Position numbers and translations under genes: made by a program. This document shows, piece after piece, positions 10,432-52,540 of a stretch of 64,000 nucleotides of DNA; positions within the stretch are counted from its first letter, which is position 1, and each line of letters begins with the position of its first letter. The stretch lies in assembly GCA_002633005.1 (NCBI GenBank), contig NMRA01000009.1, forward strand, positions 35,484 through 99,483. Direction: 5' to 3'. The notes beneath the pieces were generated by a model that saw nothing but the letters and a program-made list of their open reading frames with translations, had not been told where the DNA came from and made no database searches. Source of the DNA: Phoronis australis. Taxonomy: Eukaryota; Animalia; Phoronida.

Positions 10432-10505
10432 GTAATAGTGTACATGTTTATTAAAAAAAAACTGTTCGTTTTATTGTTGACTGGTTCAACTTGATTATTT
10501 TACAG

Positions 10506-11276
10506 GTACAATGTGGACGTAAAATGTCCGGGAAAAACGCACGGACACTGCACTGCGCCGGGGATAATTCGACGAAAACGTTGACTGCGAAAGAGTACAA
10601 CTGTTTAAAGCACGCACTACCAAAAAGTAAAATCCCCCGCGTGTTACTTCATGACAACGTTACACACACAAAGACTCTGTCAAGGTACCTGGGCATACTA
10701 CAGTCGAGGAAGAATAAATCAAGGAATGACCAGGAACAGAACATCCGCACCTTTGTAGCATGTCAAAAGAAGAAGCAGGCAAAATGGAGAAGGGAAGATG
10801 AGTTTGGTATAGCTGGAATTAATCTGCCGCTCGTGACGGATTTACCAAAAGAAAGACCAACAAGCATGTGTAAACTATATACGACTCCCACGTACGACAT
10901 CGCCGAAAAGCCAAAAGTATGTGTGCCGTTACTACCGGTTATGTCTATGAATCGCTCCAAAACGGAGATAGTGTCACACCGTGACCAAACCATTTGTGCC
11001 AAACTTCCCTTAGTGGTAGAACTCGACAATAACCTCATGCGGCGTTATGACCAATACCGTGGAAAGTTACTTCTGGTTCCGGGAGGCAACGCTGTGACTG
11101 ATCGTAGATTTTACAATCTTACTTCGTCCTTGTCGGCGACGAAATTGGAGCCAGACGGGGACTTTACGTTTCGACCAGCTACCATGCCCCTACCCGTAAC
11201 TACAAAGACACGAACTCTCAACAGCGAAATGGTAACCTCCAGATTTTTCAAGAGAAAAACTCATTCGACCAAATAA
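10506..11276 (+). CDS. Uncharacterised basic protein (~250 aa from ATG 10524), terminal exon
   Basis: ttattttacag acceptor at 10505; longest non-repetitive, gap-free ORF in the window; no domain recognised. Confidence 0.7.
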   Translation, partial: VQCGRKMSGKNARTLHCAGDNSTKTLTAKEYNCLKHALPKSKIPRVLLHDNVTHTKTLSRYLGILQSRKNKSRNDQEQNIRTFVACQKKKQAKWRREDEFGIAGINLPLVTDLPKERPTSMCKLYTTPTYDIAEKPKVCVPLLPVMSMNRSKTEIVSHRDQTICAKLPLVVELDNNLMRRYDQYRGKLLLVPGGNAVTDRRFYNLTSSLSATKLEPDGDFTFRPATMPLPVTTKTRTLNSEMVTSRFFKRKTHSTK

Positions 11277-11789: not shown

Positions 11790-12038
11790 GTGAAACACTC
11801 TGGTCTAAAGGTCAGACAACACACAGGCTAGTTTATAGAAAGTGTGTTTCACCAGATATAAACACTCTGGTGTAAAGGTAGACAACACACAGGCTAGTTT
11901 ATAGAAAGTGTGTTTCACCAGATATAAACACTATGGTGTAAAGGTAGACAACACACAGGCTAGTTTATAGAAAGTTTGTTTCACCAGATATAAACACTCT
12001 GGTGTAAAGGTAGACAACACACAGGCTAGTTTATAGAA
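11790..12038. repeat. ~60-bp minisatellite, ~4 copies, between convergent gene 3' ends
   Basis: unit aaacactctggtgtaaaggtagacaacacacaggctagtttatagaaagtgtgtttcaccagatat. Confidence 0.95.
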
Positions 12039-12127
12039 ATGAAACATCTTCAGTCCCTTACAAATACTTTACCAAAATGTGTCACTTTGACTTAAATATT
12101 TGTCAATAGTTCATAACAGATAAAACC

Positions 12128-12133
12128 TTTATT
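12128..12133 (-). promoter_or_regulatory. Candidate polyadenylation signal of pyrophosphatase gene (another at 12189-12194)
   Basis: AATAAA on - strand ~550 nt after stop. Confidence 0.4.
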
Positions 12134-12682
12134 ATTTGTTTTATGCATTGTTTTCTACTGCACATTTGACAGCATGTGGCTTTGAAAATTTATTAAATAT
12201 TAAATCAAGACATTTTAGTAAATTAGATTCTGTATTGACATCAAATGAAATCATAACATTGAATCAACTGCGAACAACAGAATCTAATAGAAACACTAAA
12301 ATCTTCATGATTCACAGAAACCAAGATTACCAGTTATGACAACGTTTAAAGGCAGATTAGAACATGAAAAGATTAGCACTGAGTCATGAATATGACGTAA
12401 CAGAACCATCTATCAATACAAATTTCACAGCATGCTTACACCCAACTTCAACTATGGTATTTCAAAAGACCATCCACAAACATAAGAATTACTGACAGTT
12501 ACCGACATTATTGACACTTTACACCATCCTATTGCATTTTAAATTGAAAAATTACCACTAATTATTAGTTGATATAATCAGGTACCATTTGTCATATTGT
12601 AGAGATGGAGTCAAGGTTGTCTTCAGTAAGATTGTTGTGTGAGGACCAGTTATAGTTTACACATACTGTCATCTTTTAAAGG

Positions 12683-12720
12683 TCATGCTGAGGAGGCAGA
12701 TACATAGTACCACTTGTCAA
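12683..12720 (-). CDS. PPA1: Inorganic pyrophosphatase exon 10 (terminal)
   Basis: tttcag acceptor; (V)DKWYYVSASSA* has the conserved C-terminal VDKW. Confidence 0.9.
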
Positions 12721-13611
12721 CTGAAATATAAGAATTGACACCTGTCAGCATGTGTTTTAAAAATTCAAAACGAACACAAATATGTCACTACACAATGCTG
12801 TGAAGTGAAATGTCAACACAAAGTGTGGAATGGACTCAAATAAAGTTTTTCAAAATGTAAAACAAAACTCCCAACAGAATTTACCTTCATCTAGGGATGA
12901 AAAATAATCACCTGAAAATGAGAGGCAATTTATCATTATTAAAGCACCCCAGGGCGGTAATTAGTCCAGGTGAAAATTGTCAACTTCAAACTGTAATAAA
13001 GCAATGTACATCTCACTGAAGCAATTCATCAATTCCACCCAGTCTTTGGTGTTATCATGTGTAATTATCAACCCCCCAAATAATGAGACTCCACCTAGAG
13101 TTCAAACACGGAACCAGGCCATACTGCTTACATGAAAGTTGTCACCTTCCTTCGACACCATGGTTTTCTGTGTTAAAGGAAAACCATTGGAATTCATGGA
13201 ATCAACTTCTTTCAAAAAATTTTTTGTTTCAAATGGAAATTACAAACTTCAGTAGTAGATATGACAATTCTAATGTACCTTAGTTGTTAATTACCAAAAA
13301 TTAACAATGCAATACATCAAACTTGTTGCCAAAGACTAATCCCAGCCACAACTGGAACAGTCACTTTGAAGCAGATATAATCAAATTGTTGAACTTTCAT
13401 TTTGGAGGTGGCACTATTTTTGTTACAATTTAAAGAAACAGTAGAATGGAAAGAGTAAGCAAATCCCTAAAGCATTTTTATAAATTGGAAATAGTAAAAT
13501 GAAATAATTTTGACAATTTACAAAACAGATTGTTGGGCTTGCTACAACAGATTTCCTTGTTTTTAAAATGACAAAAAACAGTGTACCCAATTTCTTGTCA
13601 AACTTTTTGAG

Positions 13612-13791
13612 TTCAGTACAGAATAACAATGTAATGTTCAGCACAGAATAACAATGTAATGTTCAGCACAGAATAACAATGTAATGTTCAGCACAGAATA
13701 ACAATGTAATGTTCAGCACAGAATAACAATGTAATGCTCAGTACAGAATAACAATGTAATGTTCAGCACAGAATAACAATGTAATGTTCAG
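13612..13791. repeat. 25-bp minisatellite, ~7 copies
   Basis: unit gttcagcacagaataacaatgtaat. Confidence 0.95.
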
Positions 13792-14066
13792 TTATCCCTG
13801 AGTGCACTAATCACACTTGACATTTACAAATAAGCTGGGATTAAGTGGCAATTTTATCAAAAAGTTGTATTTTTTCAACACAAAACCATAACAAAGGGTA
13901 TTTCGTGGATTAAAGAAATTTTGAAAATGTATTTCATAGGCCAGCTGAATTATACAGTTTAGACTGTTAGGATCCCACAAGATGTCAGCACCTGAATATG
14001 AGCTCTCATACTTCTACAAGTAACCAGTGGCAGCATGCTATCTAACTACAAACAGAAGATACATAC

Positions 14067-14106
14067 CCTCAGAGGAGATGGCCGCTGCTGGTCCTGCAGC
14101 CGATGA
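14067..14106 (-). CDS. PPA1: Inorganic pyrophosphatase exon 9
   Basis: tttttcag / G|GTATGT; SSAAGPAAAISSE; phase 0 to 1 fits neighbours. Confidence 0.82.
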
Positions 14107-17100
14107 CTGAAAAATAGAGAAAGGCAATACTTAGTGTAACATAGCTGGCCAAGCTTGTTGATGTGCGAAATGTTTACTGTTTACATACATACTTGAAATA
14201 AACTAAAGTGTCACTGAAGTGTAACAGTTACACTGTAACCTGGACTGGGTGATATTGACCAAGCTTGTCTCCAATCTTGAACTATGTGCGAGACTAAATA
14301 GAGTAGAGTTTCTTTCAATTCGTACACAATATGGTGAAACAGTTAAAGTTTATTTTATCAGAGTTTTCAACAAGAGTAAACAAGAAGAGAATTTTACTTG
14401 AAAATTGTAAAAAGTATGGCTGTCATCAACAAATGCAAGATGGAATTATGAAAATTTTTGTCAATATGGAGAGAGTCTGAAAAATGAAAACTTTGGCCGT
14501 TAATGTTAAGTACAAATTTAGGAACTTTACTGCACACACCAAAAATACCAACTTAGTAAAACCTCTTTGAGATGGTGATGCTGTAACTTTATTTTCAAAA
14601 TCTGTTGGTCTATGCAAGTGTAAATATCACAATACATTTAAGAAACGATGACAAAAATATTGGACAAAATTCTGTTTCCCTATCCTGACTCGGCTATATT
14701 GTTTACAGTGAATTATTTTAAAATCAGCTGCCATAGCAGACATTCCATCAACAATGAGTCATTGTTATGCAATGTAATAGCTGAAAGTAACAGTGACAAT
14801 ACGTGCCAAAAATATTCAGAAAGAAAGACCCAAAATTCCTCGTCATGATGGCCTGGTCATGATGGCCAGGCAGACGGTGACTTCATCATAAGAATAGTCT
14901 TCAATGATGGCAGAGAATGAAGGGAAATTAAAGGAAAATTAGAAATGTGCCTAAGTTATTGTGTAATCAAAATTTTACCGCTACAATTTCCATTACCAGT
15001 CATTTCTGCTATTAACATAATCAGCCCTCATGACAGGGAAACAGAACTATGTCTGAATACTATAGTCCTGTACTGTATTCAAGTTAATTCATTGAATGTA
15101 TCAGCAGTTCACCCATGTTATCGTGAAATAGAAAACCCCAAATGACAAAATAGTAAGGTGAAGGTAAAACAAGGTTAAGAAAGTAGGGACAACCGTGAAC
15201 TAGGTTCAGAATCTAATCTTCAAACTCAGACTAGACTCTGACTCGAAAATTAACACATCACATCGGATTTGAGTACACAGTTTTAAACTTACCACATGTC
15301 GTGTGTCATGCCAACAGGCAATTTTCGAGTCTAATTTCTAGTACACAGATTAGACCATAGAGGGCAGGACCTGGACTTTGAGGAAACTAACTGCCCAATC
15401 ACATCTGAGAACCCATGAGCAAAAGTAGCCATTTAATGTACATTTAGCAAAAAAAACAAATGTATTCTCATTGAATTAACTCTAATGAATTTCACTGGAT
15501 CAATGGGTCTAACATAAAACTGGAATCATATAAAACTGGAATCATATAAAACTGGAATCATATAAAACTGGAATCTCATCAGTGCTTTCAGATTTGAATA
15601 TATTTTTGTCAAAATTGAAGGACAAGGGAAGATAAATGTTAGTGTATGTTTAGGCATCAGACATCAGTAACTGTAAAACTGAAAAAATAATATTTATTTT
15701 ACAAATATAAATAGTTCAAGGATTTCACTAAAAGATGAGGCACCATGGTACTTTTACGCTGAAATATTTTTGAGTTGCAAATGGTTCCCACCAGGCCCCT
15801 CCCACCTTGCACGTTCACCTCTGTATGTCGATATGAATGGGTTTCAACTGATTACGCATACATAAAGATTTAAAATAAAACATTACAATGCAAAGATGAG
15901 GCTTAAGCAGTACATCGTCTCGCCCAGTTGCTCTTTGACTAGTTAAACTCATGCTATCTAATTGGTAAAACTTTAAGGAATTTGTTGGTCCTGACTAAGC
16001 TGCCACATGACTCTGTGATCACTTCATGTCTACAGGGACAAGTGTGTGAGACTGCGAGGTGTAAGATTATCATGGCGCATTGCATAGTTAGTCTAAGCAC
16101 TGAACCTCCACGGATTACATGGACAACAACAACTATATACACAGTAATGAACGTCACATTTGGAAAACTCAGAAACAGTATACAGNTACAAACGAGAGAG
16201 AGGACTTGCTTGGTATTATAAAGCAAAAAATGAAACATGGTTTTTAGTTTGCAAATCACTCCAAATGCACACACTATCCAGCCTGCTCAAGACATGCCTG
16301 ACCACAAGCTATCCCATGAGCCTTCGCGAAGGAAGTAACTCGCACATGCGCAATGCGTAGTTCGTCTGCGCTGCAAATCCGCTATTGGTAAACTTTAAGG
16401 AATTTGTTGGTCCTGACTAAGCTGCCACATGACTCTGTGATCACTTCATGTCTACAGGGACAAGTGTGTGAGATTGCGAGGTGTAAGATTATCATGGCGC
16501 ATTGCATAGAGTTAGTCTAAGCACTGAACCTCCACGGATTACATGGACAACAACAACTATATACACAGTAATGAACGTCACATTTGGAAAACTCAGAAAC
16601 AGTATACAGAATGTCACTATTTCATGTTTTGCAGCTAAATTAAATGTCCTCCATACATAAAAACTTACATTAGTATGTAACAAATCATCAATGTTTTGTA
16701 TAAATTTTGAGTAACTAATAACCATTCAACAGAATTTCATTTTTGCCTCACTTGCTGCCAGATTTCCATGAAATTGAAAATAACAGAAGACAAGGACCTG
16801 TCACAAGAGTAAGAAATGCGAGGCAAGGCGTCAGTCAAATACAAAGTTACAAAAACTTTCACACCCGGTATTCTATAGAAATATAATTTTCACGCTCAGT
16901 TGACCAGAAATGGAATTTTAGTGAAATGAAAATGCGATGACTTTACAGAGAAATTACAAGCTATACAACTGCCGGAGACAACTAGCTGCCTGGTTATTTG
17001 GATATGTGCTTGCATACAATTCAACAGCAAAGAAGGGGAAATCAGAGATATAAGATCAATGTCTCGGTATTATTGTAATGATCTAATTACTTTGCAATGA

Positions 17101-19087: not shown

Positions 19088-19157
19088 TTGTTGCGCTATG
19101 CCATCTGCTTCACTCTGGTCCACCTTGTATGGACTACTGGACACTGTCACATTTTTA
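19088..19157 (-). CDS. PPA1: Inorganic pyrophosphatase exon 8
   Basis: tgcag / GTAAGT; (C)KNVTVSSSPYKVDQSEADGIAQQ. Confidence 0.88.
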
Positions 19158-19765: not shown

Positions 19766-19854
19766 CAGTCCATGCCATGCGTGTCATCCACTTTTTTGTC
19801 CACTAAAGCCTTCCACTGTTTGTTGGTTTCATCAACGATATCTTCAGCAAATTC
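19766..19854 (-). CDS. PPA1: Inorganic pyrophosphatase exon 7
   Basis: tgcag / GTAACT; EFAEDIVDETNKQWKALVDKKVDDTHGMD. Confidence 0.93.
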
Positions 19855-20280: not shown

Positions 20281-20367
20281 CCTGCCCTTGGCTTGTCCAT
20301 TGAAAGCAAACTTGTTAGCTGGTTTGCCATCAGGTATTTTGTAAATTGTAAACCACTCCACTGTTGC
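20281..20367 (-). CDS. PPA1: Inorganic pyrophosphatase exon 6
   Basis: [29 protein letters not shown] with YKxPDGKP motif; tag / GTAAGG. Confidence 0.96.
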
Positions 20368-21974: not shown

Positions 21975-22142
21975 CTTGAGCAAACCAGGCATATTTTTTT
22001 CTATGTCAGCCAAGTCATTAAGCTGATCAGCCAGAGGATCAGTGACATCTATTGCAAGGATCTTCCAATCTGTTTCCCCCTCATCAATGAGTGCAACTGT
22101 GCACAGGGCTTTCACCTGGACTACATCACCCTGCGAGTGCAC
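21975..22142 (-). CDS. PPA1: Inorganic pyrophosphatase exon 5
   Basis: [56 protein letters not shown] with catalytic DEGETDWK. Confidence 0.97.
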
Positions 22143-23039: not shown

Positions 23040-23126
23040 CTTTTGTCCAATTTCACACACATCAATAGGATCTCCATCCCCTTTACAACCAGTGTGACTG
23101 TCAATCAACGAAGGATTCTCCCACGT
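23040..23126 (-). CDS. PPA1: Inorganic pyrophosphatase exon 4
   Basis: [29 protein letters not shown] with family-I DxDPxD signature; cag / GTGAGT. Confidence 0.97.
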
Positions 23127-26810: not shown

Positions 26811-26930
26811 CTGTGGCAAGAAGCCATAGTTCCAGATGTAACCATGATGTGGGAAGCAGTTCTTCACGTATCGAAGTTTACCCTTTTTCACATCTTGTTT
26901 GATTGGGCTCATAGGTTCTTTAGTAGCGAT
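26811..26930 (-). CDS. PPA1: Inorganic pyrophosphatase exon 3
   Basis: [40 protein letters not shown]; tttcag / GTTTGT; 120 nt. Confidence 0.97.
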
Positions 26931-30584: not shown

Positions 30585-30703
30585 CTCCATCTTTGCATTC
30601 GTCCAGCGCGGCACTTCTACTACCATGTTATACACTTTCTTGTCGTCATTCTGGGCCAACAGTGGGATATCATGGAAGGGTGATACTACTGAACCATTAC
30701 GAG
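30585..30703 (-). CDS. PPA1: Inorganic pyrophosphatase exon 2
   Basis: (T)[39 protein letters not shown]; ccag / GTACAG. Confidence 0.97.
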
Positions 30704-36916: not shown

Positions 36917-37070
36917 TGAAATAGACACGATAATCCAATGTATTTTCAGAGCCACGCTGAATTACCCCGTAAGACATTGTTCTGACAAAACTTGGGGGAA
37001 AGGTTCTTGCTCTCAACAAGCCTCCAGTACAGGCAACGACACTTTTCGCTCTGCCCACTACACGTTGCAT
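36917..37070 (-). CDS. PPA1: Inorganic pyrophosphatase exon 1 with mitochondrial-type presequence and second in-frame ATG (36977); single invertebrate PPA1/PPA2/Nurf-38-type gene
   Basis: MQRVVGRAKSVVACTGGLLRARTFPPSFVRT-MSYGVIQRGSENTLDYRVYF, A|GTAAGT donor, phase 1 fits exon 2; ten exons total 972 nt = 323 aa + stop. Confidence 0.92.
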
Positions 37071-49429: not shown

Positions 49430-50114
49430 GCTAAAACAATTCCAAAGCATTATTGACTTTATAACAAAATCAAACAACATACGTGAAGTTTAAAATGCCG
49501 ATAATGGATTGTTTTAGTCAGAATTACGTTTCTTTAGAAAATTCAACATTCCAATGGTCGCCAGACAAAGAGCATGGTCACATATTGCAATAAAGGGACA
49601 AAATCCAATATAATGCTACATCCTTATAAACATATGTACTATCAAGAGATTCTCCATTGCAAGCCAATTTATACAACAAAGCATAGTATCCTCAACTGCA
49701 TGGGAAGCAATGTTGAAGAGTGTCTAAAGACAAGCATCACATCATCTTTAACAACTTGTTTCTTTAAGTTGCAGATGTGAAAGTGTGAGCCAGATCAAAT
49801 CTTTTAATATTTCACACTTCAATTTGTTTCTTATTAAAAGTAGCAGATGTAAAAATTTTAGCGAGATCAAATCTTTTAATATTTCACATTTTAATAAAAG
49901 CCCTAAATTTAATAAAACAATCTCATTTTCACACTGTCATTTTTTATTTGTACCAGACATGTGCAATTCGTCTAAGAACTAATAAAATCAAGTAATCCGT
50001 CATGTTTCTGCCAGTCAAGTGATCGAGTAAACTTGTTTCTATGACAACGATAGGCACATATTAAACATTATTTTGCAATCAACTTGGGCCCAAGTAACTA
50101 GAGCCCAAACTTAC

Positions 50115-50298
50115 CCGCCTTCCTAAGATTTGATTGATTGCTGCCGATTCCTTTAATGTACACTCAGCCACTACCTTGGCCCTATTCTCTTTCATAAATA
50201 ACATGAATGCATTGAGCGGCTTCTTTATATGAGGTTTTTTCTTCTCTGGAGGAGGCTCACTATTCTGACCCATTCCACTACGTTCATGTAATAATTGC
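50115..50298 (-). CDS. TCF7L2: TCF HMG-box exon 1
   Basis: [40 protein letters not shown], diagnostic TCF/LEF HMG box; tttcag / GTAAGT. Confidence 0.98.
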
Positions 50299-52540
50299 CT
50301 GAAAACATACAACCAGATATATACCAGTTGACATCGCAACTGCAGCGTGGAACATAACACCTGAGATTTACCATAGAGCGCCCCTGCCACAATGTCAGGA
50401 ACGGGCTCCTTCCGCATAACTCCCTGGTAAAACTGACAAGTTAAATACAGGGCCGCCATTAAAAAACATTTGAAATACGTCAATAATTTTTTTAGGTTTT
50501 ATGATGGTTTAGGTTAACGAATGTTTTACAGTAACAATATGGATGGAGTTAGTAGCCTTACTTAATCTAACTGAAAGATGGCTAATTTTTACCTTGATTA
50601 TGATGTTGTATGTGGTTTCAGTAAGGAACAACCTTCATTCATTTTCTGTAACTAGCAATGCCCATTTGTGTTCTTTGCCAAATAATAAAATGTCAAAAAG
50701 CAAAAAATGTTTTAACCCTGTCGGGGTGTTTAGTTCCAACAATGTTTGAAATATTCTGATCCTAGTTTACATCTGAAAGTGATACAGATCCTGGTTTACA
50801 TCTGAAAGTGATACAGTTGGTCTGCATGAATATACAAGACTGTTAGAAATGTTGCTAAATGTACGTCATTGTTTTAACCTATTTGTGGAGTGTGACTGAC
50901 ACACATGTCTGCCAAAATTCAAGAATTTGATGCTGAAATCTAGAATGATTGCATTGCAGAGATTACAGAACATTACAGTCAAGGATGAATTCTGTTTTAC
51001 CATGTTAACGTGGTTTGACGCATTTTGCCAAAAAACACTTAAACACTTGTTTTATGACATTGCATAAAACATTTGTAATTGATTTTGTTTTTCAAATAAC
51101 TGATTAAAAAAGAGGCGCCATCAAATTTCACAATGACGTCATACTAAACAAAAGGAACACACAAGTGTATGCATTAGGTATGATAAACTTATCTTAGATT
51201 GTTCACATTAACTAAGAACGCATTTACGCTCACGGTGATGTCAATACGTTTTCAAGGACAACATGACTGTCATTCAGGAATCGTTGCTGAACTGATGCAC
51301 AAGAACTCAGGTCACGGAAATAGATGGGAATAGTCGATGATATTCTGACCTCGGCCGAGGTACAAAATTGTGCTCAAAAGGGCTTTTAGTTTGATAACAG
51401 AAAGGATGTGAACATTATGGCATATTGCATATTACTAAATTTGGTATGTATTTTTAAGTTTTTGAACTAGATTACCCTTTGATGGTAAAAGCCCTGAAAA
51501 TATATCCTAATAGGGCAATAATTTTAGAAGTACTCAATTCAATTACTTGTTGAATTTAATACTGAACTAAATACTTAGTTTGTGTTCTTATTCTAATGAA
51601 GGTAATATTAAACATCACAAAGATAACGTTTGAACCGATAAGTTGTGAAAACATAAGCAACCAGTCAACAGGTAAAAAAATGCCACAACAGTCATTAAGA
51701 CAGTAAAGCCATGCGTGATCTAAACAAGACACCTTTGAGTAGTGAAGCATAAAATTTGAGTCGTCTGTAATTTCATGCTGAATGCCACTACACAATGAAC
51801 TATAACACGCCTTTGGGCGGAAGATGGCTTTCAAATGGGCAAGTCTTCAAGCAGTTTTTGGTTTGAAATTGTTAAGGGCGAAATTCTAACCTTTTCTCCG
51901 AGTCTCATTCACATCAATCAGAATCAAATTAAAATCAAATATAAACTAAAACATCAAAGAATTCAACTTGGCCAGAGTAAGGGGCACCGGCATGTGTCAC
52001 ACAACAATAAACTCTAGTTAACAATAGTAAACACAAGGATTTTTGAATTTTCTGGCTATTTAATAGTCTCAATATAGCTCACCCAAGGACAATGAACGGA
52101 ATACTTTTGATTAGCCGACCAGAACAGCCCAAGGCGCGATACCTTAAGGTCATCAAGTACAATGTAGACAGGAGATGAAGCCAGGAAGCACTAAGCTATG
52201 TTTATAGTAACATGGTGCATCTCAACCCAGAGGAATCAGACAACTTTATTTGACAAGATAGATCAACATCTTTTGTTAATACCATTGGAAACACATGTGA
52301 CATTTTATTTAGAATACAGGGTCTTGACTTTCTAGCCTGTGTTACCCAACAGGTTTTTCAAATAATTCTGGTATGTAATGCATTAGCACCAGTTCCTGAG
52401 ACTGCTAAGCTAGGAAAACTTAATAACATAAAGATTTGGACAGTAATAGAAAACAGCACTGGCTTGAATTAAAAGTGGCAACACATGAAAGGAATTGGAG
52501 ACTATAAACTGTTCTGCATAATCATACAGCTCCGCCCTCA

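Follow-up and report, generated by a model that had tools for sequence, protein, structure and literature searches.

We found a short in-frame tail ending in C-K-L, a peroxisomal targeting signal of type 1 (PTS1), behind the UGA stop codon of a soluble inorganic pyrophosphatase gene of Phoronis australis, and a low-abundance peroxisomal isoform of this enzyme is probably made by stop-codon readthrough, judging by analogy with known cases. The gene lies within the 64,000-nucleotide stretch of contig NMRA01000009.1 that was analysed here (the window). The same enzyme and mechanism were already described in 2014 in nematodes and vertebrates, and the phoronid gene would add a member to them. Positions 12685..12650 of the minus strand translate as stop-P-L-K-D-D-S-M-C-K-L-stop, which reproduces, in coordinates, strand and codons, the TGA, tail and TAA described by the first-pass annotation:

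12683..12685, minus strand: regular UGA stop of the pyrophosphatase, followed by CCT at +4 to +6 (a UGA-C context), seen in the sequence and in RNA reads
12653..12682, minus strand: ten-codon in-frame extension P-L-K-D-D-S-M-C-K-L, with a spliced mRNA read depth of about 120-140
12653..12661, minus strand: C-K-L tripeptide, PTS1 consensus, fitting the pattern in the methods of PMC4207609
12650..12652, minus strand: second stop, TAA, seen in the sequence

Two features of a readthrough PTS1 are found here. The extension runs in frame to the second stop and has a PTS1 tripeptide as its end, and RNA reads place the UGA at the true end of the reading frame in the mRNA, with the tail inside the mature mRNA. 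The regular end of the protein, ASSA, carries no PTS1-like signal.

The gene has ten exons from 37070 to 12683 on the minus strand, with GT-AG at all introns and a 324-codon frame free of internal stops:

36917..37070, minus strand: exon 1, with a first ATG at 37070 and a second ATG at 36977
30585..30703, minus strand: exon 2, by frame and GT-AG
26811..26930, minus strand: exon 3, Pfam PF00719, E 2.8e-06
23040..23126, minus strand: exon 4, containing D-x-D-P-x-D
21975..22142, minus strand: exon 5, Pfam PF00719, E 1.2e-11
20281..20367, minus strand: exon 6, by frame and GT-AG
19766..19854, minus strand: exon 7, by frame and GT-AG
19088..19157, minus strand: exon 8, with which loose read ends at 14106 agree
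14067..14106, minus strand: exon 9, by frame and RNA joint
12683..12720, minus strand: coding part of exon 10, the last exon, with the conserved DKWYY motif and the RNA joint 14067/12720

The sequence identifies the product as a family I soluble inorganic pyrophosphatase (PF00719). A pyrophosphatase was already named in the first-pass annotation, and the intact frame and the Pfam matches in exon 3 (27.7 bits) and exon 5 (45.1 bits; cut-off 23.5) bear this out. Exon 2 alone gave no Pfam match, and exon 5 matches pyrophosphatases in the PDB (E 5e-18). Residues 148-153 read D-x-D-P-x-D, which we take to be the pyrophosphatase active-site motif. The conserved core starts at the second ATG, and the 31 codons ahead of it form a leader (36978-37070, minus strand) with six R/K and no D/E residues. 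This predicted leader is likely a mitochondrial presequence, and mitochondrial and cytosolic forms are likely produced from one gene via the two exon 1 ATGs. Exon 1, used as the query of a protein search, turned up no relative, a result of little weight.

Four of nine RNA runs were compared with positions 11900-14300 of the window; runs X7 and X8 were sampled at 18 and 19 in 100 reads, and results are reported from 3 reads and 2 in 100 upwards. Between exons 9 and 10, the joint (14067/12720) is crossed by 114 reads in X7 and 110 in X8, oriented as a transcript of the minus strand would be, and is also present in a contig of run X6, while run X5 yielded only one intronic contig of 301 nt. Depth at 12680 is 146 and 129 reads in X7 and X8. 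In these two runs no alternative letter appears at the TGA or the TAA above 3 reads and 2 in 100, indicating that the UGA is unedited in the mRNA down to the 2-in-100 threshold. Two sites differ in the X6 contig, 12605 in the UTR and 12680, where the first codon of the tail is changed synonymously and the context becomes UGA-CCC. This single synonymous site is compatible with constraint, weakly and as no proof of it. Two further features lie near the 3' end of the gene:

12885..12911, minus strand: minor in-frame cassette exon of 27 nt (3'-side joint 7 and 5 reads, 5'-side joint 5 and 4 reads)
12672..12674, minus strand: candidate alternative acceptor, AG at 12674-12673, by which exon 9 would continue in frame into the tail's last seven codons; no joint to it in X7 or X8 at the threshold of 3 reads

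The cassette exon occurs in about 4-6 in 100 junction reads and adds nine residues just before DKWYY, keeping frame and stop. Neither its inclusion nor intron read-in yields a PTS1 end. RNA depth drops near 12300-12220, and two AATAAA hexamers lie farther on, at 12194 and 12133.

How often such a tail arises by chance was estimated from the window itself. A strict [SAC][KRH][LM] end follows 19 of the 7,237 stop triplets on both strands (0.26%), and 0.30% is expected in a first-order simulation from the pyrophosphatase 3' UTR. Only two of the 626 TGA-C sites in the window have a strict end behind them, one of the two being the pyrophosphatase stop. The wider pattern of Stiebler et al. 2014 is matched after 56 of the 7,237 triplets (0.77%). 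A wide survey would gather such chance tails, and thus the weight of the observation rests on the gene family having been named beforehand. If a few percent of pyrophosphatase genes are assumed to carry a real tag, compared with 0.3-0.8% by chance, a real tag becomes the likelier origin of the tail. We lowered the estimate because the stop context is weak, conservation was assessed on distant relatives and a specific rival exists, namely that the tail is a relic of a -VKL end.

We fetched 226 related proteins, of which the 30 best-scoring are animal or unnamed proteins with 57-64% identity; in a quick tree of 47 proteins, the phoronid gene falls in no supported clade. A strict PTS1 end is found in 4 of the 226 proteins, and 43 fit the Stiebler pattern. 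A C-terminal motif is recognisable in 197 of them; 33 of these have a VKL end and 84 an L-K-type end. The VKL enders include Lingula, Saccoglossus, Glandiceps, Capitella and Magallana, and many lophotrochozoan and hemichordate pyrophosphatases end this way (P0127, P0130, P0131, P0141, P0152 and others). VKL has been validated as a non-canonical PTS1 in plants (PMC9542071, PMC3427985), and the VKL ending is possibly a weak overt peroxisomal signal. In insects, a PTS1-like end sets the two members of isoform pairs apart (SKL in P0030, and HKL in P0058 and P0115 versus HLK in P0060 and P0110), and two coral pyrophosphatases end in PKL.

The DNA behind the stop was inspected in 80 metagenome loci of distant eukaryotes, of which 67 were kept after dropping ten that were incomplete or had no second stop and three duplicates. 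A strict tag stands behind the stop in two of the 67 (L052 and L059), against none of 123 off-frame tails (Fisher p 0.12); set against the window rate, the same count gives a binomial p of 0.013-0.03. The wide pattern is found in two of the 67 (L030 and L059) versus 1 of 123 off-frame, and at the regular end in 6 of the 67. Only one of these loci has a UGA-C stop. These sequences suggest that hidden tails in pyrophosphatase loci are uncommon and perhaps enriched. The L030 and L008 proteins are 81% identical, and both have a UAG-C stop followed by a basic tail, which ends R-R-G-K-L-stop in L030 and meets the contig end in L008. This pair is a possible second case of a readthrough PTS1 among pyrophosphatases. 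L059 and L074 have similar unusual C-termini; the former carries a five-residue tail behind UGA that ends A-R-L, and the latter a UGA-CUAG context with a tail that meets the contig end.

As a proxy for the leakiness of the stop, we used the reporter values that Cridge et al. 2018 obtained for 192 contexts in COS-7 cells, which are mammalian and not the host's own (PMC5829715). In that series, UGA-CCU gives 0.67% readthrough, third lowest of the 16 UGA-C contexts, compared with 2.85% for UGA-CUA, 1.01% for UGA-CCC and a UGA median of 0.19%. The first-pass annotation had relied on UGA-C being a leaky context: UGA-C is present, but CCU is among its weakest forms. In the same mammalian table, UGA-CCU exceeds the contexts of the mouse pyrophosphatase (UGA-AGA, 0.13%) and of human PPA2 (UGA-UUG, 0.31%). 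The stop does not belong to the programmed UGA-CU(AG) class (LDHB, MDH1, AQP4 and pyp-1), since C-C directly follows the UGA, and we did not class it there. A 2026 preprint (10.64898/2026.07.14.738498) describes C-U after UGA as common to all readthrough variants of three human genes and as essential, a result that speaks against the phoronid site. We found no paper pairing UGA CCU with readthrough. Structure-stimulated readthrough was rejected, as no stable RNA structure is found over the 123 nt downstream of the stop (z +0.59; 141 of 200 shuffles fold as well). Stiebler et al. 2014 argued that about 1% readthrough is enough, because peroxisomes make up 1-2% of the cell volume (PMC4207609).

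The closest known system is C. elegans pyp-1, for which Stiebler et al. 2014 described a readthrough PTS1 behind UGA-CUA (PMC4207609). The phoronid gene is like pyp-1 in enzyme family, UGA stop and a short in-frame tail with a consensus PTS1. However, the pyp-1 stop context is UGA-CUA and its tail is basic, with the end SKL (predictor score 13.7, Table S2), whereas the phoronid gene has UGA-CCU and an acidic tail ending in CKL, and the two tails share no sequence. Readthrough tails have also been predicted for mouse (UGA-AGA, SKL), chicken (UGA-GGG, HHL) and human PPA2 (UGA-UUG, SHL; PMC4207609, Table S2), and these resemble the phoronid tail in hiding a PTS1 behind a UGA that C-U does not follow. 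Mammals have two genes, one cytosolic and one mitochondrial, whereas a single phoronid gene seems to carry both the predicted mitochondrial leader and the tail. Peroxisomal copies of the same enzyme arise by alternative splicing in Drosophila (the PTS1 isoform of Nurf-38) and through an N-terminal PTS2, not by readthrough, in Ustilago (Ipp1; PMC4207609). Hence, of the pyrophosphatase precedents invoked in the first-pass annotation, the nematode one holds and the fungal one does not. Its reading as a whole keeps the gene, the tag and a precedent, and loses the fungal example and the strong stop context. A 2022 review repeats these cases and stresses the patchy distribution of hidden tails (PMC9549241). 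Our literature search, mostly outside subscription papers, found no survey of hidden pyrophosphatase tags in other invertebrates.

The readthrough-derived peroxisomal isoforms of LDHB and MDH1, also cited in the first-pass annotation, are documented as LDHBx and MDH1x (PMC4207609, PMC5133446), and MDH1x is instructive about the quality of the tag. CKL lies within the Stiebler screening pattern (PMC4207609) and among the validated plant PTS1 tripeptides (PMC9542071, PMC3427985), in agreement with its earlier assignment to the PTS1 consensus. The tail has aspartates at -7 and -6 and no basic residue at -4 to -6, and plant PTS1s that are weak become weaker still with acidic residues at -6 to -4 (PMC9542071, PMC3427985). 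Human MDH1x likewise has a cysteine-type PTS1 (C-R-L), two acidic residues at -7/-6 and a serine at -5; it has glutamates at -7/-6 and a lysine at -4, where the phoronid tail has aspartates and a methionine. The last ten residues of MDH1x are imported into peroxisomes, though less well than S-R-L (PMC5133446). The earlier worry about acidic residues is thus real, as the plant data indicate, but not fatal. By analogy, the C-K-L tail is expected to act as a predicted moderate signal. MDH1x and LDHBx differ from the phoronid case in having UGA-CUA(G), a measured readthrough of 1-4% and shown conservation, whereas the phoronid stop context is UGA-CCU and its readthrough a predicted one.

On the readthrough reading, the UGA would likely be decoded by a near-cognate tRNA in a small share of rounds, a fraction of a percent; with the mammalian reporter as a guide, this would be roughly 0.5-1%, and the product would be an enzyme 11 residues longer. 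PEX5 would recognise C-K-L despite the aspartates at -7/-6 and import the long form, which may clear pyrophosphate from fatty-acid activation inside the peroxisome, as Stiebler et al. 2014 proposed (PMC4207609). With the predicted leader, the second ATG and the tail, a single gene would supply the enzyme to cytosol, mitochondria and peroxisomes.

A tail without function, which we consider possible though rather unlikely, would be either a chance match or the relic of a W-H-Y-V-K-L-stop end, displaced by a short insertion that carried a new UGA. Exactly 14 codons separate Y-V from K-L-stop in the phoronid gene, and VKL is the end of 33 of the 197 relatives. The match is perhaps partly inherited, so that the chance figure of 0.26% would be too generous. 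The weak UGA-CCU context and the missing RNA structure also fit a tail without function, and events of 0.3% turn up in surveys of many windows. Yet a relic would need to be recent to last without selection, and it would still have to lie in the correct frame and have a small residue at -3. Moreover, the gene family was implicated independently, and a UGA-C stop is seen in just 1 of the 67 orthologue loci.

Rare splicing could expose the same tag if exon 9 were joined to the acceptor at 12674-12673, skipping DKWYY and the UGA and giving the end D-D-S-M-C-K-L. The stretch from 12800 to 12600 contains nine AG sites, of which this one places the tail in frame, and the spliced Nurf-38 isoform (PMC4207609) and the insect isoform pairs are alike in kind. 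We nevertheless hold this to be very improbable: by chance one AG in three would be in frame, the candidate is an AAG whereas each of the ten acceptors in use is a CAG or a TAG, and no such joint occurs in X7 or X8 beside the 114 and 110 normal ones (threshold 3 reads), limiting it to at most about 2 in 100. That the UGA stands for selenocysteine, or is edited into a codon for tryptophan, the long form being the regular one, is scarcely credible; the stop being UGA is the one point in its favour. Both were rejected, as 11800-12800 gave no Rfam match up to E 5, hence no SECIS match, although a divergent SECIS could escape such a search, and the UGA is unaltered in the reads at the 2-in-100 threshold.

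Readthrough and the -VKL end might also be parts of one history, an idea that we put forward as doubtful. Here -VKL would itself act as a weak peroxisomal signal; after losing it, lineages would have rebuilt one, by splicing in insects and by readthrough in nematodes and vertebrates. In the phoronid, an insertion would have hidden K-L-stop behind a leaky UGA, the end then being sharpened to C-K-L, with one gene serving three compartments. If this were true, the locus would show an overt targeting signal turning cryptic. The probable readthrough isoform, if real, would itself mean that an invertebrate lineage beyond nematodes and insects sends its pyrophosphatase to peroxisomes. It would also lend weight to the view that peroxisomes in general have to remove pyrophosphate by themselves, and imply that a UGA-CC context can suffice. 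Specialists would find such an isoform expected more than surprising, because gene and mechanism have been on record since 2014.

The neighbourhood of the gene contains two other coding candidates. A 273-codon open frame (10455-11276, plus strand) converges on the 3' end of the pyrophosphatase gene; it shows a weak similarity to DUF5528 (E 0.0011) and no Pfam match above the cut-off. Upstream of the pyrophosphatase gene and on the same strand, an HMG-box exon is found at about 50079-50498 (minus strand; Pfam PF00505, E 1.1e-09). By its sequence features, this exon presumably belongs to a TCF/LEF gene. We take human PPA2 and LEF1 both to lie on 4q24-25, which would make the neighbourhood of pyrophosphatase and HMG-box an old linkage.
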